In this document: in pieces, positions 1,527 to 12,498 of the stretch
Layout: each line of letters opens with the position of its first letter
Position numbering within the stretch: the first letter of the stretch is position 1
IMG/VR virus record: IMGVR_UViG_2896595138_000006
Origin: a virus
Taxonomy: Duplodnaviria; Heunggongvirae; Uroviricota; Caudoviricetes
Direction: 5' to 3' (one strand)
Length of the DNA: 12,498 nt
Position numbers and translations under genes: made by a program
The notes under the pieces: generated by a model
Seen by the model: only the letters and a program-made list of their open reading frames with translations
What the model was told of the DNA's origin: nothing
Database searches by the model: none

Positions 1527-2952
1527 TAATGCCGATCAGTTAAGGATCAGTTGACCGATCCAGTGGCTGTGTAAGAATCCGGAAACGCTCACTTGTTTCC
1601 GGATTTTTTTATGCACATTGGACAGGCTCTTGATCTGGTATCCCGTTACGATTCTCTGCGTAACCCACTGACTTCTCTGGGGGATTACCTCGACCCCGAA
1701 CTCATCTCTCGTTGCCTTGCCGAATCAGGTACTGTAACGCTACGCAAGCGCCGTCTTCCCCTCGAAATGATGGTCTGGTGTATTGTTGGCATGGCGCTTG
1801 AGCGTAAAGAACCTCTTCACCAGATTGTGAATCGCCTGGACATCATGCTGCCGGGCAATCGCCCCTTCGTTGCCCCCAGTGCCGTTATTCAGGCCCGCCA
1901 GCGCCTGGGAAGTGAGGCTGTCCGCCGCGTGTTCACGAAAACAGCTCAGCTCTGGCATAACGCCACGCCGCATCCGCACTGGTGCGGCCTGACCCTGCTG
2001 GCCATCGATGGTGTGTTCTGGCGCACACCGGATACACCAGAGAACGATGCAGCCTTCCCCCGCCAGACACATGCCGGGAACCCGGCGCTCTACCCGCAGG
2101 TCAAAATGGTCTGCCAGATGGAACTGACCAGCCATCTGCTGACGGCTGCAGCCTTCGGCACGATGAAGAACAGCGAAAATGAGCTTGCTGAGCAACTTAT
2201 AGAACAAACCGGCGATAACACTCTGACGTTAATGGATAAAGGTTATTACTCACTGGGACTGTTAAATGCCTGGAGCCTGGCGGGAGAACACCGCCACTGG
2301 ATGATACCTCTCAGAAAGGGAGCGCAATATGAAGAGCTCAGAAAACTGGGTAAAGGCGATCATCTGGTGAAGCTGAAAACCAGCCCGCAGGCACGAAAAA
2401 AGTGGCCGGGACTGGGAAATGAAGTGACAGCCCGCCTGCTGACCGTGACGCGCAAAGGAAAAGTCTGCCATCTGCTGACGTCGATGACGGACGCCATGCG
2501 CTTCCCCGGAGGAGAAATGGCGGATCTGTACAGTCATCGCTGGGAAATCGAACTGGGATACAGGGAGATAAAACAGACGATGCAACTGAGCAGGCTGACG
2601 CTGAGAAGTAAAAAGCCGGAGCTTGTGGAGCAAGAGCTGTGGGGTGTCTTACTGGCTTATAATCTGGTGAGATATCAGATGATTAAAATGGCGGAACATC
2701 TGAAAGGTTACTGGCCGAATCAACTGAGTTTCTCAGAATCATGCGGAATGGTGATGAGAATGCTGATGACATTGCAGGGCGCTTCACCGGGACGTATACC
2801 GGAGCTGATGCGCGATCTTGCAAGTATGGGACAACTTGTGAAATTACCGACGAGAAGGGGAAGGGCCTTCCCGAGAGTGGTAAAGGAGAGGCCCTGGAAA
2901 TACCCCACAGCCCCGAAAAAGAGCCAGTCAGTTGCTTAACTGACTGGCATTA
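1527..2952 (+). mobile_element. Insertion sequence IS4, complete copy (1426 bp)
   Basis: Terminal inverted repeats TAATGCCGATCAGTTAAG (1527-1544) and CTTAACTGACTGGCATTA (2935-2952), 16/18 match. The 1426-bp length and the 442-aa transposase agree with IS4 as remembered. Flanked by a 13-bp direct duplication. Confidence 0.92.
1611..2939 (+). CDS. insG: IS4 transposase (DDE family)
   Basis: 442 aa starting [16 protein letters not shown]. Matches the E. coli IS4 transposase essentially throughout, from memory. A hairpin plus T run (1577-1610) sits immediately before the ATG. Confidence 0.92.
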
Positions 2953-3280: not shown

Positions 3281-3478
3281 TTATTCTGATTCTTTGGCCT
3301 TCCTGCGCTGTTCATATTTTAATTTGCGTCCACAGGCATCTAAGACCCATGCGGAAAAATTAGCACTAGGATTAGTTAATTTTTCTTGTTCAACGCTGGC
3401 ATAAACCCCATCTATAAGCTCATGTGGGAATCGAATATTTTTCTTTGCTGATTTGTTGTTTGTGTTACCGCTAGACAT
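3281..3478 (-). CDS. Arc/Mnt-like ribbon-helix-helix DNA-binding protein (putative repressor)
   Basis: 65 aa. The segment NIRFPHELIDGVYASVEQEKLTNPSANFSAWVLDA resembles the beta-strand plus two-helix pattern of P22 Arc (..NLRWPREVLDLVRKVAEENGRSVNSEIYQRV..). Shine-Dalgarno GAGGT lies 6 nt before the ATG on the minus strand. Divergent from an operator-bearing promoter. Confidence 0.6.
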   Translation of the reverse strand: MSSGNTNNKSAKKNIRFPHELIDGVYASVEQEKLTNPSANFSAWVLDACGRKLKYEQRRKAKESE

Positions 3479-3505
3479 TGATGCACCTCACTTAAATGGA
3501 CTTTA

Positions 3506-3586
3506 TGGGCGCACACAATACAGCAAAAAAAATGAGATGTTAAGTATTGACATGTGCGCACACATGATTTTAATCTGTGCGCACAG
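3506..3586 (+). promoter_or_regulatory. Rightward sigma70-like promoter (TTGACA 3547-3552, 16-bp spacer, TTTAAT 3569-3574) with palindromic operators TGTGCGCACA at 3553-3562 and 3576-3585 and a 9/10 copy at 3506-3515
   Basis: Hexamers and perfect 10-bp palindromes read directly. One operator sits in the -35/-10 spacer and one at about +1; the third lies in the leader of the divergent RHH gene. Confidence 0.45.
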
Positions 3587-3846
3587 TTTGAGTTTTGTCA
3601 CTCAAATTAAGCAACGCCCCGCAGTGCTCGCAACACATGCAGGGCGTCTAACCACCAACGATAGCAACAGTATCGAGGTAGCTATGTTAAATCATACCAC
3701 ACACCTGCAAGGGCGGGACTCGCACAACCTGAATAAAGCGGGTATGAAAAACCAGTTGATCGCCACTGCCAGCCAAGGCTATGATTCGCGTGCACCTTAT
3801 AAAACGGGTGCCGGGATTAGGACCCCGCTGACAATCGAGGCGATAC

Positions 3847-3869
3847 AGACGCCGCACGCGTCTTTTTTT
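3847..3869 (+). terminator. Intrinsic terminator inside the rightward leader (AGACGC-cgcac-GCGTCT then T7)
   Basis: 6-bp stem 3847-3852/3858-3863, T run 3863-3869. Lies about 280 nt downstream of the promoter and before the first icd-like unit. Could define a leader RNA or an attenuator. Confidence 0.4.
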
Positions 3870-3931
3870 GTATCGACGCACACGCACACCTATACAATGG
3901 TGGGCTGTATGGGGCTACCTTCGGGTAGGCT

Positions 3932-4028
3932 GGTTCCCTTGATTGCCAGTAGTCCTAACCCTGTACAGTCCACCGCCAGCGAGCTTAGGACCTCCGGCGG
4001 TGGTTACATTCCATCAATCAAGGAGGCT
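3932..4028 (+). promoter_or_regulatory. Unit-1 leader element: anti-Shine-Dalgarno segment (3932-3945) complementary to the Shine-Dalgarno region (4015-4028) of the first icd-like ORF
   Basis: CCTTGATTG (3937-3945) is the exact reverse complement of CAATCAAGG (4015-4023), which overlaps the Shine-Dalgarno sequence AAGGAGG (4020-4026). Confidence 0.35.
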
Positions 4029-4034
4029 GCCGAC

Positions 4035-4223
4035 ATGGCTACTACCCCTACCCTTGTACATTCTCAAACAGCCTTTCTCTGGCGCTTTATCGCCTTTGGT
4101 GCGTCAGAGTCCCAAATCATCCACGTCACCGCCTGGACTGAACGCGAAGCGCGTAACCATTGCCCGTCCGGTTGTGTTGCTGTATTCGCGGCCCGTATTC
4201 GTCAGGGGGTTGGCCATGCGTAA
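4035..4223 (+). CDS. Small Icd-like/Ash-family protein (62 aa); a longer in-frame form could begin at ATG 3897
   Basis: Strong Shine-Dalgarno AAGGAGG 8 nt upstream of the ATG at 4035. Motifs FLWRF, TAWTEREAR and FAARIRQG are shared with the downstream paralogue. The family name is recalled from annotations of P4-like islands, not verified. Confidence 0.55.
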   Translation: MATTPTLVHSQTAFLWRFIAFGASESQIIHVTAWTEREARNHCPSGCVAVFAARIRQGVGHA

Positions 4224-4344: not shown

Positions 4345-4409
4345 GTGTCCGTAAACCTACCCATACCCGCATTATGGCGGGGCGTAACGGGGGAGCCTTT
4401 GCGCTCGCT

Positions 4410-4502
4410 GGTTTCTTTGCTGCCAGTCTGTCAACCCTGTTACGTCCCGCCACCATGTTTGACAGCGTGCTGGCGAGACTCCTTACATCAAGCAAAGGAG
4501 CC
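4410..4502 (+). promoter_or_regulatory. Unit-2 leader element: anti-Shine-Dalgarno segment (4410-4421) complementary to the Shine-Dalgarno region (4491-4502) of the second icd-like ORF
   Basis: GGTTTCTTTGCT can pair with AGCAAAGGAGCC over 12 positions (10 Watson-Crick plus 2 G-U), covering the Shine-Dalgarno sequence AAAGGAG (4494-4500). Confidence 0.35.
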
Positions 4503-4906: not shown

Positions 4907-6103
4907 TTATGACCCCTGCGGGGTATAAAAAGTCCCGTCGCGCATCATGGCGAACAGAACGTCGCAGCGTCGTCTCGCCAGGGCGATAAGCGCCTGATTG
5001 TGTCGTTTTCCCTGACTCATTTTGCGGGTGTAGTAAGCCCTGGAGAGCGGATCCCTGAGCGCGGCGAAGGCCAACAGGAACAACGCCCGTTTGAGAGCTT
5101 TATTACCCCGTCGCGAGGGATGCTCACCGCGTATTGACGAGCCGGATCGCCGAGTTACCGGCGCAAGGCCAGCATAAGCAGCGAGATGTGCGGCAGAGGC
5201 GAAGGCGCGGCAGGCGACCTCGGTGAGGAGTCTGGCTGCGGTCCTGACACCGACTCCGGGCATACTGGTCAGGACCGGGTAAAGAGGGTGAGCAAGAACT
5301 CGCTGTTCTACCTCAAGCGCCACCTCGTCTCTTTGCTTACGCAGCGTGATGAGCTGGAGTGCCAGACGTGGCAGTACTACGGCAGCGGCATTCGTGCCGG
5401 GAACGACGACGGTTTGTTCGGCCAGTGCCTGAGCTATGTCTGCTGCAAGGCGTTTACCCAGACGAGGCGCAAGTTTGCAGAGCTGGGCTGCCAGCTTCTT
5501 CTCACCCAGCGAAGCGAGTTTTTCTGGTGAGGGATATCGCTGGAGAAGATCGAGTACCGCCGGGTGCTCAAGTCTCGGACCGAGAACGCGCTCCAGTGCC
5601 GGATGTATCTGGGTCAGAAGGCCGCGGAGACGGTTGCTGGCCTGCGTTGTCTGTGCGGCAAGATCATCATCGAAGCCGCAGAGCATGGAGAGTTCGGCGA
5701 TTTGCTCGTCAGCCAGTTTCAGCGTGCGTAGCGCGTGAGGCAGGGTACGGGCAGCTTCGGCAATGATGGCAGCGTCACGAGCATCAGTTTTAGCTTCACC
5801 GGCGTGTAAGTCGGCTATGCGGCGCATGGCCAGTCCAGGGAGGTATCCGACAAGGACTCCTTCTGAGCGGGCAACGGCGACAGGTAACGCACCGATGGTA
5901 GCTGGCTGATCAACAACCAGCAGTATCTGACCATGTTGTTTCAGGTCAGATATTAGCGACCTGAGTTTGTTTTCGTCGTTGGGTAATGCTTTATCGAACA
6001 GGCGTTTACCTGAACGATTAATGGCAACAGCGTGATGCGTATCTTTACCGACATCAACGCCGATAAAGACCTGGACGGATTCGTAATCGCTGGATTCGGT
6101 CAT
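4907..6103 (-). CDS. IS110-family transposase/recombinase (N-terminal DEDD RuvC-like domain plus C-terminal Transposase_20 domain)
   Basis: N-terminus VFIGVDVGKDTHHAVAI and C-terminal LTSMPGVGVRTAARLL...AAYAGLAPVTRRSGSS are the hallmark motifs of IS110-family enzymes. Shine-Dalgarno AGGGAG lies 5 nt before the ATG on the minus strand. Confidence 0.9.
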   Translation of the reverse strand: MTESSDYESVQVFIGVDVGKDTHHAVAINRSGKRLFDKALPNDENKLRSLISDLKQHGQILLVVDQPATIGALPVAVARSEGVLVGYLPGLAMRRIADLHAGEAKTDARDAAIIAEAARTLPHALRTLKLADEQIAELSMLCGFDDDLAAQTTQASNRLRGLLTQIHPALERVLGPRLEHPAVLDLLQRYPSPEKLASLGEKKLAAQLCKLAPRLGKRLAADIAQALAEQTVVVPGTNAAAVVLPRLALQLITLRKQRDEVALEVEQRVLAHPLYPVLTSMPGVGVRTAARLLTEVACRAFASAAHLAAYAGLAPVTRRSGSSIRGEHPSRRGNKALKRALFLLAFAALRDPLSRAYYTRKMSQGKRHNQALIALARRRCDVLFAMMRDGTFYTPQGS

Positions 6104-6681: not shown

Positions 6682-6873
6682 GTGGAGGAACGGCGCGTAA
6701 CCTACCGTCGTGAAGGCTACGAATATGATTGCGTGATGCCTGTTTATCAGTTCGACCGTGATTTTTCTCTTGTGCAGGCCGTACCGCGTAACGTGCCCAC
6801 CAGCAGGGAGAAAGCACGCGCCAATATTCAGGAAATAAAAAAGATGCTTAACGTATTCAGGGGTAAAAAATGA
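6682..6873 (+). CDS. Hypothetical protein (63 aa, GTG start), translationally coupled to the primase gene
   Basis: Its stop overlaps the primase start (ATGA at 6870-6873). Upstream Shine-Dalgarno spacing is poor, so the start is uncertain. Confidence 0.35.
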   Translation: MEERRVTYRREGYEYDCVMPVYQFDRDFSLVQAVPRNVPTSREKARANIQEIKKMLNVFRGKK

Positions 6874-8624
6874 AACTGGCACCGAACGTAAAAAAACAGC
6901 CACGCGGAATAAAACACAAAGACACAGAGGTAATTATCTTTGCGGGTAGTGATGCCTGGGCACACGCGAAACAGTGGCAGGAACATGACGCGCGTACAGC
7001 CGGAGATAATGAGCCTCCTGTGTGGCTTGGAGAGCAGCAGCTATCCGAACTGGATAATCTGCAAATTGTGCCGGATGGCAGAAAATCAGCACGCATATAC
7101 AGAGCCGGACATCTTGAGCCTGTAATGATCAAGGCGATTGGTCAGAAGCTGGCGGCGGCAGGTGTACAGGATGCAAATTTTTATCTTGAGGGTATGCACG
7201 GCCAGGAGGTGCAGAACTGGCGCGAATATCTGGCCCGTGAACGCCAGAATCTTTCTGATGGTCTGGTCATTGAGCTTCCGGTAAAGCAAAAGGCGCAACT
7301 TTCGCAGATGGCAGACAGTGAGCGCGCACAGATGCTTGCTGGTCGATTTGATGGCGTTTGTGTGCATCCGGAAAGTGAAATCGTTCACGTATGGCGCGGC
7401 GGGATATGGTGTCCGGTCAGCACAATGGAACTGAGCCGCGAAATGGTGGCGGTTTATTCAGAACACGGGGCCACATTCAGCAAGCGGGCAATTAATAACG
7501 CCGTTGAAGCGTTAAAAGTTATTGCTGACCCGATGGGCGAGCCGTCCAGTGATTTGCTACCGTTCACTAATGGTGTGCTTAACCTGAAAACGGGGGAATT
7601 TTCCCCGCACACGCCGGAGAACTGGATCACCACGCACAACGGCATTGAGTACACGCCACCAGCACCAGGGGAGAATATCCGCGACAACGCGCCAAACTTT
7701 CATAAATGGCTTGATCACGCAGCCGGAAAAGACCCGCGCAAGATGATGCGCATATGTGCCGCGCTTTACATGATTATGGCGAACCGGTACGACTGGCAGA
7801 TGTTTATTGAGGCCACCGGAGACGGCGGGAGCGGTAAAAGTACATTCACACACATAGCCAGCCTTCTGGCAGGGAAACAGAACACGGTAAGCGCTGAAAT
7901 GACATCGCTTGATGATGCTGGTGGACGTGCGCAGGTTGTCGGGAGTCGTCTTATCGTCCTGGCTGACCAGCCGAAATATACAGGCGAAGGAACGGGCATC
8001 AAGAAAATCACGGGCGGCGACCCCGTGGAAATTAACCCGAAATATGAAAAGCGTTTCACGGCGGTAATCAGGGCGGTGGTGCTGGCGACCGACAACAACC
8101 CGATGATATTCACCGAACGGGCCGGAGGTGTGGCACGTCGTCGCGTGATTTTCCGTTTCGACAATATCGTCAGTGAGGCCGAAAAAGACAGGGAGCTACC
8201 GGAAAAGATTGCGGCTGAAATCCCCGTTATTATCCGCCGATTGCTGGCGAACTTTACCGACCCTGAGAAGGCACGGGCTTTACTACTGGAACAGCGTGAC
8301 GGTGATGAAGCACTGGCAATAAAGCAACAGACGGATCCGGTTATTGAGTTTTGCCAGTTCCTGAATTTTCTGGAGGAAGCGCGCGGCCTGATGATGGGTG
8401 GCGGTGGTGATTCAGTGAAGTACACGACCAGGAACAGCCTTTACCGCGTCTATCTGGCGTTTATGGCATACGCAGGCAGGAGCAAACCGCTAAACGTAAA
8501 TGACTTTGGCAAGGCTATGAAGCCTGCCGCAAAAGTTTACGGACATGAATATATTACGCGGAAAGTTAAGGGGGTAACGCAGACTAACGCAATAACAACA
8601 GACGAGTGCGACGCGTTTTTATAA
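6870..8624 (+). CDS. Primase/helicase, phage P4 alpha-like (D5-N-type plus SF3 helicase domain)
   Basis: 584 aa. Walker A motif ATGDGGSGKSTF and the surrounding pattern (IVLADQP, VLATDNNP) match the P4-family primase C-terminal helicase domain as remembered. The N-terminal 200 aa are consistent with a Toprim-like domain. Followed by the iteron cluster. Confidence 0.88.
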   Translation: MKLAPNVKKQPRGIKHKDTEVIIFAGSDAWAHAKQWQEHDARTAGDNEPPVWLGEQQLSELDNLQIVPDGRKSARIYRAGHLEPVMIKAIGQKLAAAGVQDANFYLEGMHGQEVQNWREYLARERQNLSDGLVIELPVKQKAQLSQMADSERAQMLAGRFDGVCVHPESEIVHVWRGGIWCPVSTMELSREMVAVYSEHGATFSKRAINNAVEALKVIADPMGEPSSDLLPFTNGVLNLKTGEFSPHTPENWITTHNGIEYTPPAPGENIRDNAPNFHKWLDHAAGKDPRKMMRICAALYMIMANRYDWQMFIEATGDGGSGKSTFTHIASLLAGKQNTVSAEMTSLDDAGGRAQVVGSRLIVLADQPKYTGEGTGIKKITGGDPVEINPKYEKRFTAVIRAVVLATDNNPMIFTERAGGVARRRVIFRFDNIVSEAEKDRELPEKIAAEIPVIIRRLLANFTDPEKARALLLEQRDGDEALAIKQQTDPVIEFCQFLNFLEEARGLMMGGGGDSVKYTTRNSLYRVYLAFMAYAGRSKPLNVNDFGKAMKPAAKVYGHEYITRKVKGVTQTNAITTDECDAFL

Positions 8625-9824: not shown

Positions 9825-10031
9825 ATGACAGAAGAGAAAAAAGGCGGGGTGACAGTTTACATAAGCCCCGATATCGTGGAGGCGCTCAAGGAACGCCACC
9901 AGCAGAACGTAAAAGCGGGCATTGCGGCAGGACTTGATCCGCTGGCGATGGTTGAGCCGTCAACAGGCTGGCAGGTACGCGCCTATTTACGTGCGGCGCT
10001 TGGCATGAATCAGACTCATGAGGGTGAATAA
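9825..10031 (+). CDS. Hypothetical protein (68 aa), first gene of the head module
   Basis: AAGGA lies 10 nt upstream. Stop overlaps the capsid gene start (TAATG), suggesting translational coupling. No recognisable motif. Confidence 0.5.
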   Translation: MTEEKKGGVTVYISPDIVEALKERHQQNVKAGIAAGLDPLAMVEPSTGWQVRAYLRAALGMNQTHEGE

Positions 10032-11086
10032 TGGCAGACAAAGCAACGGCACTTAACACTAACCAGCTTTTCGCGTACCTGAATCGCGGGGATATCCCGG
10101 AATTTAAATTCAGTCCGCTGTTTACCACGCTGTTTTTCCCGAAAGTAGCAACCTTCAACACACAAGATGTCATGCTGGATACCCTGGACATTGAAGAAGT
10201 CACCATGTCGGCGTTTTGTTCGCCTGTGGTGGGTAGCCAGGTTCAGCGTGATAAAGGGTACGAAACAAGCACTATCCGCCCTGGCTACATGAAACCCAAA
10301 CACGAAATCGATCCATCAAAAACCATCATGCGCATGGCTGGAGAAGATCCGGCACTGCTTAACGACCCCACCTGGCGACGTATGCGCCTCATTACTGGCA
10401 ACATGCGCCGCCAGATAAACGCCATTAAAGCGCGTGTGGAATGGCTGGCAGTGAATGCGGTCACGACCGGAAAAAACATCATTGAAGGCGAAGGCATAGA
10501 ACGCTATGAAATCGACTGGAATATGCCGGCAAACTGCATTGTCCATCAGGGGCCAGGAAAAAAATGGTCTGAGCAGAATAAAGAGACGCATGATCCGACA
10601 GATGACATCGAGCTATACGCCGAACAGGCCAGCTGCCCCGCCAACGTCATGATTATGGGCGCTGACGTATGGCGCACCTTACGTAGCTTTAAAAAATTCC
10701 GCGAGCTGTACGATCTTTCCCGTGGTTCAGAATCCGCCGCAGAGCTGGCGTGTAAAAACCTGGGCGAAGTGGTGAGCTTTAAAGGCTATCTGGGTGATCT
10801 GGCCCTTATCGTCTATTCCGGCAAATACACCGACAGCGACGGCACCGAAAAATATTTCCTTGAGCCTGATTTGCTTGTCCTGGGCAACACCAGCAATAAA
10901 GGTCTGGTGGCCTATGGCGCGATTATGGATCCGGAAGCGGTAAGAACGGGCGCAACGCAAAACATGTACTACCCGAAAAACTGGATTGAGAGCGGCGATC
11001 CGGCGATTGAGTACGTGCAGACGCACAGCGCACCGCAGCCGGTTCCGGCAGATATCCGCAAATTTGTTACTGTGAAAATTGGTTAA
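10031..11086 (+). CDS. Major capsid protein, lambda gpE-like (Phage_cap_E family)
   Basis: 351 aa. Multiple blocks align by eye with lambda gpE: FKFSPLFTTLFF, PGYMKPKHE, HDPTDDIELYA, LRSFKKF, LGEVVSFKGYLGDLALIVYSGKY, LVLGNTSNKGLVAYGAIMD, YYPKNWIESGDPAIEY and QTHSAPQP. Shine-Dalgarno GAGGGTGA upstream. Confidence 0.9.
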   Translation: MADKATALNTNQLFAYLNRGDIPEFKFSPLFTTLFFPKVATFNTQDVMLDTLDIEEVTMSAFCSPVVGSQVQRDKGYETSTIRPGYMKPKHEIDPSKTIMRMAGEDPALLNDPTWRRMRLITGNMRRQINAIKARVEWLAVNAVTTGKNIIEGEGIERYEIDWNMPANCIVHQGPGKKWSEQNKETHDPTDDIELYAEQASCPANVMIMGADVWRTLRSFKKFRELYDLSRGSESAAELACKNLGEVVSFKGYLGDLALIVYSGKYTDSDGTEKYFLEPDLLVLGNTSNKGLVAYGAIMDPEAVRTGATQNMYYPKNWIESGDPAIEYVQTHSAPQPVPADIRKFVTVKIG

Positions 11087-11097
11087 CGGGAGATTCT

Positions 11098-11401
11098 ATG
11101 GGCACTCCATATGTTGAGTTATATGCAGGCACACAGCAGGTTGCCACGACGCTGGTACATTTTTCCGCTGATGCTGGCGGACAATGGCGAGTTTAAGGCG
11201 TGGGATGGTCAGGAATCTGGCAAGGCTGTTTATCTGACGGCGTACCCCGTGGACACGTCAAAGCAGAAATCAGCACAGTGTTACAAGACGGGGATATTTA
11301 ATATCGCCGCCGTTAACTGGCCCGAGAGCGTCGACACCGACGCGAAAAAATGCGCCGCTTTTGCGGGTTCTGGCGTATCCGTTCAGCCACTGGTGCGATA
11401 A
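11098..11401 (+). pseudogene. Head decoration protein, lambda gpD / phage 21 SHP-like, with an apparent +1 frameshift in a T5 run (11160-11164)
   Basis: Shine-Dalgarno GGGAG lies 6 nt before ATG 11098, and that frame stops at 11194-11196. The gpD-like sequence continues in the +1 frame to TAA 11399-11401 (PLMLADNGEFKAWDG...YKTGIF...WPESVDTDAKKCAAFAGSG versus lambda PLMLDTSSRKLVAWDG...YKSGTF...WPEAASDETKKRTAFAGTA). Deleting one T from the T5 run gives a continuous 100-aa gpD-like ORF. Confidence 0.6.
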
Positions 11402-11413
11402 GCAGGGGGAACG

Positions 11414-11827
11414 ATGGCAATCAATGAAGCTATCATGGCGCTACCGCTGGCGAGTAAATTTAAAGCCGAAGCGCGGGCAATGGCGGACAGAGGTTTATCA
11501 ACCTACGAGGCTATATATCAACTTAACAAACTGGAAGAGCAGGACAAGCCGCGCACTGATGCGATTATGGCGCTTCATGAATCTGACGACTATCAGCCGC
11601 TGTTACGTGCAATGGCAAACGTGCCATGTATTAGCGTCGATAATGCCCGGGAAATCCTGAACATGACCATAGAGCAGGAACGCCCGAAGGTTGCGCCGGA
11701 GCTTACCGCAGCCTTTGAAAACTTTATGGACATGCACAGCCCGCAGGCCGTAAGCCCTGGCATGGCATACGATGGCAGATATCAGGGTGATGACGGCGAA
11801 ATCGATCGCATACTGAAAACCATCTGA
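11414..11827 (+). CDS. Hypothetical acidic protein (137 aa) in the head module
   Basis: Shine-Dalgarno AGGGGGAA upstream of the ATG. Followed directly by a strong terminator. No recognisable motif; predicted largely helical. Confidence 0.6.
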   Translation: MAINEAIMALPLASKFKAEARAMADRGLSTYEAIYQLNKLEEQDKPRTDAIMALHESDDYQPLLRAMANVPCISVDNAREILNMTIEQERPKVAPELTAAFENFMDMHSPQAVSPGMAYDGRYQGDDGEIDRILKTI

Positions 11828-11833
11828 GAAAAG

Positions 11834-11857
11834 GCCGGAGAAATCCGGCTTTTTTTT
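11834..11857 (+). terminator. Rho-independent terminator (GCCGGA-gaaa-TCCGGC followed by T8)
   Basis: Stem 11834-11839/11844-11849, T run 11850-11857. The stem sequence is nearly identical to the terminator at 9596-9617. Confidence 0.65.
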
Positions 11858-11932
11858 GCGGGTCCTTCCGGTGGGGTGGCCTGCCACGGGGCGGGAGCGG
11901 CGCAGAATTTCACTATTTATGAAAATTTTTCG

Positions 11933-12035
11933 GAAACCATGTCCGGTTTCTCTGAAGGTTAACCATTTGAAAAATATAGAAATGCGCTTTCTGCGAACCG
12001 GACATGCGCAAAAATTGAACACTCAAACCGGACAT
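11933..12035. promoter_or_regulatory. Three copies of an 11-bp motif AAACCGGACAT (one inverted) upstream of the last gene
   Basis: ATGTCCGGTTT at 11939-11949 (inverted, inside the GAAACC-N6-GGTTTC dyad 11933-11950), GAACCGGACAT at 11995-12005, AAACCGGACAT at 12025-12035. The last two are 30 bp apart. Confidence 0.4.
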
Positions 12036-12113
12036 ATATGCCGCGTTTCATAAAGTTGTTCGCAAGATGCATGTTTAAAACGCATGAGGGGAGATTTTTG
12101 GGCGAGGTGAACA

Positions 12114-12498
12114 GTGGCTACTCAGACTGAAGTTGCCAGGCATTTGAGTCTGACCGATCGCCAGCTTCGCAGATTACAGAAATTGTTCCCCCATCACTAT
12201 GGAAACCATAACCATGACCGACGCCGAACTACTGAAAGTAATCCGCCGTATTACCGGAATCTGTCAGGCAACAGGCAAACAGGTGGCCACGCAGCCGGAC
12301 AGCGTCACCGCTGAAAATTACGCGCGTGTGGTGGCTGAGGTGATGCGCCGTGACGGTATTGAGCTTAACGGCGTGGATATGCGCAACATACGAACAAGAG
12401 TCCTTGAGTTGCTGGCATATCGTCGCCGTTCTCAACAACGGAGGGAGAGCGCGAAAAATACTTACCAGTGGAGGAAGCCGGAGCACTTACGGCGGTAA
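12114..12498 (+). CDS. Putative HTH-type DNA-binding protein (possibly small-terminase-like or a regulator), apparently frameshifted at a C5 run (12188-12192); alternatively an independent ORF 12214-12498
   Basis: GAGG lies 6 nt before GTG 12114. The N-terminus ATQTEVARHLSLTDRQLRRLQKL looks like a helix-turn-helix, but that frame then becomes low-complexity and stops at 12314. The +1 frame (12199-12498) reads as a normal protein and ends exactly at the window end. Deleting one C from the C5 run fuses the two into a ~128-aa ORF. Confidence 0.4.

Follow-up and report, generated by a model that had tools for sequence, protein, structure and literature searches.

Three repeated motifs in an EcCICFT073-family chromosomal island are probably the small-terminase docking sites of a captured lambda-type cos

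The virus record IMGVR_UViG_2896595138_000006 of IMG/VR, a stretch of 12,498 nucleotides that is referred to here at its full length as the window, carries three copies of a short motif near its right end, and the locus raises the question of which protein these copies serve. The initial annotation saw in them an operator or activator array through which a helper signal controls the gene downstream. The window belongs to the EcCICFT073 family of phage-inducible chromosomal islands (PICIs) and is about 90% identical to EcCICFT073 of Escherichia coli CFT073 and its relatives in an alignment that ends just past cosN, the cohesive-end site. Our analysis makes it highly likely that the three motifs are the R3, R2 and R1 sites of a cosB, that is, predicted docking sites for the small terminase (TerS) of a helper phage, within a lambda-type cos site captured by the island. 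Their function, as far as sequence comparison can tell, is DNA packaging, not transcription control.

The three copies are arranged as follows.

11939-11949, plus strand: motif copy A, ATGTCCGGTTT, inverted relative to the other two
11995-12005, minus strand: motif copy B, GAACCGGACAT, the inverse of copy A with a match of 10/11
12025-12035, minus strand: motif copy C, AAACCGGACAT, the inverse of copy A

Three 11-bp copies had been described at these positions. The coordinates are all correct, but the exact unit common to the three is only 10 bp long, AACCGGACAT or in the other orientation ATGTCCGGTT, because the middle copy has G as its first base; copies A and B have the 11-mer CATGTCCGGTT in common. 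The start-to-start distance of the two direct copies is 30 bp, as had been reported, and the dyad GAAACC-N6-GGTTTC noted around the inverted copy is indeed found at 11933-11950. In relatives, the left arm of this dyad reads GGGATCC or GGGAACC, so the dyad itself is incidental and was dropped as a functional unit. A hairpin at 11930-11946 was also dropped as a candidate terminator; it is part of R3 and its flank, and the hairpin is not conserved. How unusual is such a cluster? Any 10-mer pair within 110 bp is common by chance (1751 of 2000 dinucleotide-preserving shuffles), but any 10-mer triple was seen in one shuffle of the 2000, and the window holds just one triple, the motif array. A scan of the window allowing zero to one mismatch gave no match beyond the three copies. 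The three sites are exact in sister islands of E. coli O121. Searching the literature for the motif string returned unrelated primer and plasmid matches only.

What the array belongs to became apparent from its surroundings. The interval 11859-12185 is 98.8% identical to the lysis-to-terminase segment of a lambdoid prophage in E. coli CFSAN029787, in which a full-length 'terminase small subunit' of 169 aa and a large subunit of the gpA type come after the same array. Judged by this likeness, 11859-12185 is a complete lambda-type cos site in the order cosQ-cosN-R3-I1-R2-R1-terS. Its parts and immediate borders are listed below, with I1 as the candidate site for integration host factor (IHF).

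11829-11854, plus strand: G+C-rich hairpin with a T-run that ends the upstream capsid-like gene block (inverted-repeat and terminator scans)
11860-11866, plus strand: cosQ-like block GGGTCCT, the proposed packaging-termination subsite
11889-11900, plus strand: cosN, GGGCGGGAGCGG, 12 bases, counterpart of the lambda cohesive end GGGCGGCGACCT, with predicted nick positions
11909-11931, plus strand: cosN-to-cosB spacer TTTCACTATTTATGAAAATTTTT, in lambda TTTCGCTATTTATGAAAATTTTC, nearly invariant over the aligned lambda-like cos sites
11937-11953, plus strand: R3-equivalent predicted TerS site CCATGTCCGGTTTCTCT with its core ATGTCCGGTTT at 11939-11949, bp 49-65 from the cohesive end
11960-11972, minus strand: I1-equivalent candidate IHF site TTTCAAATGGTTA, one mismatch to the consensus WATCAANNNNTTR, between R3 and R2
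11995-12006, minus strand: R2-equivalent predicted site GAACCGGACATG, bp 107-118, inverted relative to R3
12025-12035, minus strand: R1-equivalent predicted site AAACCGGACAT, bp 137-147, a direct repeat of R2
12114-12185, plus strand: terS remnant, GTG and 23 codons, MATQTEVARHLSLTDRQLRRLQKL, the same as the first 24 residues of the prophage TerS
12186-12192, no strand assigned: deletion or recombination junction, at which terS codon 24 meets the leader of the island's last gene

The array had been placed directly after a head-module terminator, and the terminator-like hairpin at 11829-11854 does precede it. This hairpin is island sequence in front of the cos, kept in sister islands and missing from the phage versions, and similarity to the prophage cos sets in at 11859, at the cosQ-like block. 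GGGTCCT is invariant across all aligned cos regions including that of lambda, at a constant distance to cosN, and the role proposed for it follows published work on cosQ (PMC6739421, PMC4669245). When the cosN of the window and of lambda are aligned column by column, bp 1-6 and bp 10 are the same and bp 7, 8, 9, 11 and 12 differ; the flank is ACG/GGGCGGGAGCGG in the window and ACG/GGGCGGCGACCT in lambda. Lambda-like phages typically vary in cosN at bp 7-12 only (PMC4669245). The CFSAN029787 prophage shares the window variant, as do 6 of 78 phage contigs from IMG/VR, and the near-identical GGGCGGGAGCGT is found in phages phi458 and PhiR40_1. The spacer, aligned with lambda, has the conserved form TTTC(A/G)CTATTTATGAAAATTTT. 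Counted from the cohesive end, the 11-bp motifs begin at bp 51, 107 and 137 and the 10-mers at bp 51, 108 and 138. The window sites thus occupy bp 51-61, 107-117 and 137-147, to be compared with bp 50-65 for R3 of lambda (PMC9026076), bp 109-124 for its R2 and bp 150-165 for its R1. The window therefore has cosQ and cosN at the lambda distance, R3 at the lambda position, an IHF-like I1 and an inverted R2. A terS with the matching helix lies directly downstream in the phages and prophages, and the window keeps 24 codons of it.

Further evidence comes from phage contigs with this type of TerS. The 78 IMG/VR contigs, with 48 distinct upstream sequences, were picked solely by TerS similarity of at least 93%. 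The 10-mer stands at bp 51 in 77 of these contigs, at bp 108 in 73 and at bp 138 in 56, and throughout the 112 loci that were fetched it is confined to these three positions. In a conservation profile of 49 distinct sequences, an unbroken invariant run from 11937 to 11953 (bp 49-65) spans R3. The invariant columns amount to 12/12 in R3 (11938-11949), 15/19 in I1, 10/12 in R2 and 8/11 in R1, the lowest of the three sites, as compared with 7/18 in the I1-R2 spacer and 6/18 in the R2-R1 spacer. The order of conservation, R3 over R2 over R1, agrees with genetic work on lambda, in which R3 proved critical (PMC9026076). Phage PhiR12_1 and the prophages of O157:H7, ATCC 25922 and M8 have the cosN of lambda, yet they share the three motifs and the TerS. 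In phages phi458 and PhiR40_1, a cosN of the window type comes with a cosB and a DUF1441 small subunit that are both unrelated. By this comparison the motifs are linked to TerS, not to the type of cosN. A further feature was observed next to R1: in most phages (O157:H7, ATCC 25922, M8 and PhiR12_1; locus L016, 1902-1930), R1 is directly followed by ACCGGTTTT, which makes the near-palindrome AAACCGGACATGACCGGTTT, and in the window and the CFSAN029787 prophage this second half-site is degenerate (ATATGCCGCGTTT).

Then, what is the helix-turn-helix (HTH) gene that the array was thought to control? The HTH open reading frame (ORF) at 12114-12314 begins as terS, and past 12185 its frame runs off into the leader of the island's last gene. 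Homology to the prophage terS stops at 12185, and from about 12188-12192 onward the sequence is homologous to what precedes the last gene in other islands. The stump keeps both HTH helices and is without wing or oligomerisation domain. In the sister island of E. coli O121 201805972, the Prokaryotic Genome Annotation Pipeline (PGAP) marks the same 72 bp as an incomplete pseudogene, and the out-of-frame tail after the junction differs in length between the window island and the O121 island. The downstream 'HTH gene' is, as read from these homologies, a terS stump left by deletion or recombination and no regulator gene. Nor is it the last gene, as had been assumed; the real last gene lies at 12199-12498. 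The full-length TerS of the prophage is a Nu1-type small terminase, with 65.7 bits to Pfam Phage_Nu1 (cutoff 30) and an hhalign value of 99.3% against lambda gpNu1, colinear from residue 4, and with a winged-HTH domain at its N-terminus. This domain has diverged so far from gpNu1 that BLAST and Pfam matched the C-terminal part alone, and a PDB sequence search with this cognate TerS gave chance matches only.

The connection between sites and reader can be followed into deeper relatives, in which TerS is 60-78% identical and which come from Klebsiella, Salmonella, Citrobacter, Enterobacter and other E. coli. Among the 9 loci with a locatable cosN, 8 have CCGGTT at bp 55 together with AACCGG at bp 108, and Klebsiella is shifted by 1 bp (56/109). 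Six cosN variants occur among these relatives, and the positions of R3 and R2 are constant regardless. The gap between R3 and R2 is exactly 47 bp in 10/10 loci, and its sequence is heavily diverged; in 8 of the 10, from six taxa, it holds an IHF consensus match with zero to one mismatch at the same offset and on the same strand, four of them perfect. The distance from R2 to the start codon ranges from 37 to 118 bp, so that the register is fixed on cosN instead. An R1 is found at +30 bp in E. coli and Enterobacter and at +42 bp in Klebsiella; it is probably accessory. The recognition helix of TerS changes along with the sites. TerS with ..RQLRRLQK pairs with ATGTCCGGTT sites, and TerS with ..LR(D/N)LQK pairs with ATTTCCGGTT or ACTTCCGGTT sites (AT/CTTCCGGTT). 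In other words, a change of the third site base, from ATGTCC to ATTTCC, accompanies a change of recognition-helix residue 20 from R to D or N, and R3, R2 and, where present, R1 within a locus shift together in 10/10 loci. TerS residue 20 aligns with residue 21 of lambda gpNu1, whose recognition helix comprises residues 17-24 (PMC9026076). Three distant homologues with N or D at residue 20 carry TTTCCGGTT, which fits the rule. CCGGTT seems to be an ancient core of the sequence that this TerS lineage recognises. Distant TerS homologues (33-43% identity) were seen to have no tripartite array but a tandem TTTCCGGTTCCGGT 15-22 bp before the terS start, as in Pseudomonas phage LPPA33 (L010, 140-164), E. 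coli phage vB_EcoM-705R4 (L011, 775-800) and one further locus (L112, 45-70).

How would such a site serve the island? In lambda, the winged-HTHs of a TerS dimer are placed on R3 and R2 across an IHF bend at I1, and the dimer anchors the large subunit TerL for the nicking of cosN, the point from which packaging then runs (PMC9026076, PMC4669245). EcCICFT073 is an experimentally studied island with two cos sites and a protein of its own, Rpp (PMC6092414, PMC6739421), and the cosB of its cos1 is recognised through this TerS-like winged-HTH protein, which heterodimerises with the helper TerS (PMC6739421). For the window we propose that the island would replicate as concatemers when a lambdoid helper of matching packaging specificity grows, one whose TerS begins with MATQTEVARHLSLTDRQLRRLQKLPGAP, like those of the CFSAN029787 and O157:H7 prophages and the PhiR12 phages. 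The winged-HTHs of the helper TerS dimer would take R3 and the inverted R2, IHF would bend the 47-bp spacer at I1 to join the two, and R1 would contribute affinity. The bound TerS would then place TerL to nick cosN about 50 bp leftward, and the island DNA would be packaged rightwards into helper-made particles. Since the island has neither rpp nor terS, of which 24 codons are left, it would depend on a near-exact copy of the helper cos. TerS and IHF binding, the nick positions and the continued use of the site by this island are inferred here.

Several points weigh against a working lambda-type cosB and have to be set beside this evidence. Matches to the IHF consensus with one mismatch reach chance frequency window-wide, so what backs the I1 candidate is its conserved position. 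R1 is absent from the Salmonella and Citrobacter relatives, and in the window it is not oriented as R3, as it is in lambda, 21, phi80, Gifsy-1 and Monarch (PMC9026076). N15 has R3 only, which makes R1 and R2 dispensable within the family (PMC4669245). The covariation of site and helix may reflect one evolutionary switch instead of many independent events, and on that account it is supportive, not statistical proof. Foldseek matches of the TerS model, which has a moderate predicted local distance difference test (pLDDT) score of 73, are below significance, and in the searchable literature we found no binding or packaging experiment on the motif. A last point of this sort comes from the state of the island itself, whose other features are given here.

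1-795: tyrosine integrase, C-terminal part
1593-2939, plus strand: IS4-family transposase (Nterm_IS4 and DDE_Tnp_1)
3453-4223: Ash-family ORF
3792-3868, 3893-3980 and 4370-4457, plus strand: Rfam matches within or just after the Ash-family ORF
4907-6103, minus strand: IS110-family transposase (DEDD_Tnp_IS110 and Transposase_20)
6870-8624: D5/P4-type primase
10031-11086, plus strand: lambda gpE-like major capsid protein
11111-11401, plus strand: lambda gpD-like decoration protein
11414-11827: 137-aa protein
12199-12498, plus strand: last gene, 99 aa, conserved and outside the cos site

The window also encodes an AlpA-like ORF and a single-stranded DNA-binding protein (SSB). The Rfam matches, all above the gathering score, are an isrK Hfq-binding RNA and two C4 antisense RNAs (P1/P7-type immunity RNA). 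The island carries the gpE-like and gpD-like genes and no portal, protease or terminase; in EcCICFT073, deletion of the capsid-like genes left phage interference unrelieved (PMC6092414). The last gene has no Pfam or PDB sequence match, and a homologue of it closes EcCICFT073-type islands. It was considered as an Rpp and rejected on the same searches, and RppA of CFT073 is a different gene of 144 aa. Among the window ORFs there is no rpp homologue and no intact Nu1-family gene.

Could the cosB then be a fossil, acquired by descent from recombination with a prophage and disused in a decaying island? The island may be decaying, and because it has two insertion sequences (IS4 at 1593-2939 and IS110 at 4907-6103), a truncated terS and no rpp, its site may be out of use, which is the last of the points against. 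The terS junction is moreover shared by just 3 of 5426 complete E. coli genomes. However, cosQ, cosN, R3, I1, R2 and R1 are all intact at the 98.8% identity to the prophage cos given above, and the O121 sister islands, which are 93.7% identical over 666 bp, retain the three exact sites. A cos needs no island protein if the helper provides the cognate terminase. We regard disuse as improbable.

The transcriptional reading, in which a regulator, possibly helper-encoded, acts on the array to switch on the HTH gene or the last gene, fares worse and is very improbable. In its favor, the sites are repeated, partly inverted and located in a 260-bp intergenic region before ORFs, and the DNA-binding fold of TerS is MerR-like, as in many regulators. 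It is contradicted first by the gene itself, a 24-codon terS stump, and by a simple consensus scan of 11400-12498, which gave no sigma-70-like promoter on the plus strand. The array is locked to cosN and not to the start codon, from which R2 is 37-118 bp away. In EcCICFT073 cos2 it is inverted, with no gene following in that orientation, and in phages the counterpart lies inside the late operon, with lysis genes on one side and terminase genes on the other. The array also covaries with the recognition helix of the adjacent small terminase and has the lambda R3-I1-R2-R1 layout. What survives of the initial annotation is that several sites together serve a sequence-specific DNA-binding protein, most likely derived from a helper; control of a gene does not survive. 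Scarcely credible is an island-encoded reader, either an Rpp-like protein or the 66-aa peptide of the TerS stump, perhaps heterodimerising with the helper TerS: EcCICFT073 cos1 is read via the island Rpp (PMC6739421) and the stump keeps both HTH helices, but neither an rpp homologue nor an intact Nu1-family gene is encoded in the window, the stump is without wing and dimerisation helices and has a tail of unconserved length between islands, and the motif is the same as in phages that encode a cognate full-length TerS.

With the predicted cosB preferred over these readings, the same array can be looked for in EcCICFT073 itself. After the 137-aa gene, this island has cos1, rppA and an inverted cos2; its rppA is the 144-aa gene, with E = 5e-31 to RppC (PDB 6hlk), and a PDB search with the window ORFs gave no match to 6hlk. 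Previous work identified no phage cosB in EcCICFT073 and posed the reason for two cos sites as a question (PMC6092414, PMC6739421). In the proposal of Murialdo and Feiss, the Rpp-dependent cos has an R3-PICI; cos2 is not mentioned (PMC9026076). In cos2 of CFT073 and HM670, we found ATGTCCGGTT / AACCGGACAT at bp 51, 108 and 138 from cosN, together with an I1-like block.

E. coli CFT073 NC_004431.1 (L009), 11163-11259, minus strand: cos2 R3/I1/R2/R1 array; also at 1815-1911 of locus L019

The cos2 homology of EcCICFT073-type islands ends directly after R1. On this match, cos2 would be a full phage-type cosB for a TerS class outside the tested helpers (lambda, phi80 and phage 4). In the window island and the three complete E. 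coli genomes that share its junction, cos1-rpp-cos2 is replaced by a single phage-type cos and the terS stump. The left edge of the phage-derived cos is at cosQ in the window (11859-11900) and inside cosN in O121 (L003, 2558-2580), where an island-type cosQ and left half are joined to a phage-type right half. The different left edges suggest repeated recombination within cos between satellites and helper prophages. EcCICFT073-family islands may thus carry exchangeable cos cassettes, each fitting one helper-terminase specificity, a proposal for which we see the chances as even. If it is true, cos2 is the R3-I1-R2-R1 cosB for the widespread prophages with a MATQTEVARHL-type TerS, including that of O157:H7, and allows direct, Rpp-free packaging by a second class of helpers, and the window island is an Rpp-less derivative that recombined with a helper prophage within cos and has gone over entirely to mimicking the helper cos.

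Other islands were seen with other arrangements. The OkiPb01685 island has an N15/Monarch-like cosB with GGTTTTGTTGTT, followed by a 180-aa Nu1-family gene (L001, 9089-9220), and an inverted cos2 with CAGATCCGTTCTTC-type repeats (L001, 9940-9960); a PDB sequence search with the 180-aa protein gave no match. The KC-Dl-1 island has a lambda-type CGTTTCC R3/R2/R1 array and no terS or rpp (L008, 2040-2200). A search of genome contigs for related loci found only four. Two of them, from E. albertii and Escherichia sp. MOD1-EC7003, match TerS residues 26-169 only; the cosB of E. albertii is N15/Monarch-like, and the loci served as a contrast only.

The predicted cosB turns an apparent regulatory array into a packaging signal and by this identifies candidate helpers: the lambdoid prophages whose small terminase is of the MATQTEVARHL type, a common class in E. 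coli that also occurs in O157:H7. The site would add a lambda-like specificity beside those of lambda, 21 and N15/Monarch, with ATGTCCGGTT as the R-site and TerS residue 20 and the third site base as a candidate specificity pair. It also offers a testable explanation of the second cos site of EcCICFT073. Satellites of one family appear to swap cos cassettes with phages via recombination within cos.

How does the site compare with known systems? The element is an ordinary one of a known kind, although neither its recognition sequence ATGTCCGGTT nor the orientation of its R1 was found described in the searchable literature. It shares with the lambda cos the cosQ block, a 12-bp cosN with the same left half, the spacer, R3 at bp 49-65, an A/T-rich IHF-type site, an inverted R2 at about bp 108, a third site and a Nu1-family terS. 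It differs in the R sequence, which is CGTTTCC in lambda, and in R1, which in the window repeats R2 directly at 30 bp and in lambda is oriented as R3. The cosB of N15/Monarch, the type found in E. albertii and the OkiPb island, likewise has a lambda-like specificity and an R sequence of its own, GGTTGTTGTT, which occupies the same R3 position (PMC4669245), but this sequence and the TerS recognition helix are other than those described here. Satellites of the SaPIbov5 type also have no terS of their own and are packaged via a copy of the helper's cos (cited in PMC6092414); they are Gram-positive, belong with HNH-dependent cos phages, and are unrelated in sequence and terminase. With EcCICFT073 cos1 the window shares the island family, the cos position after the 137-aa gene, homologous cosQ and cosN, and a cosB read by a TerS-type winged HTH. 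An Rpp-dependent cos comes with its own rpp and a cosB unlike that of phages, as in cos1, whose cosB is divergent and Rpp-specific, whereas the window is without rpp and its cosB is phage-type, tripartite and 98.8% identical to that of the prophage. Since this cosB is the same as that of real prophages, packaging would need no redirection and would entail no Rpp-type interference. EcCICFT073 cos2 is the closer counterpart in its array, but it is inverted, has the lambda cosN, ends at R1 and coexists with cos1 and rpp, while the window has one cos, in the position of cos1, with a 5' terS stump attached.

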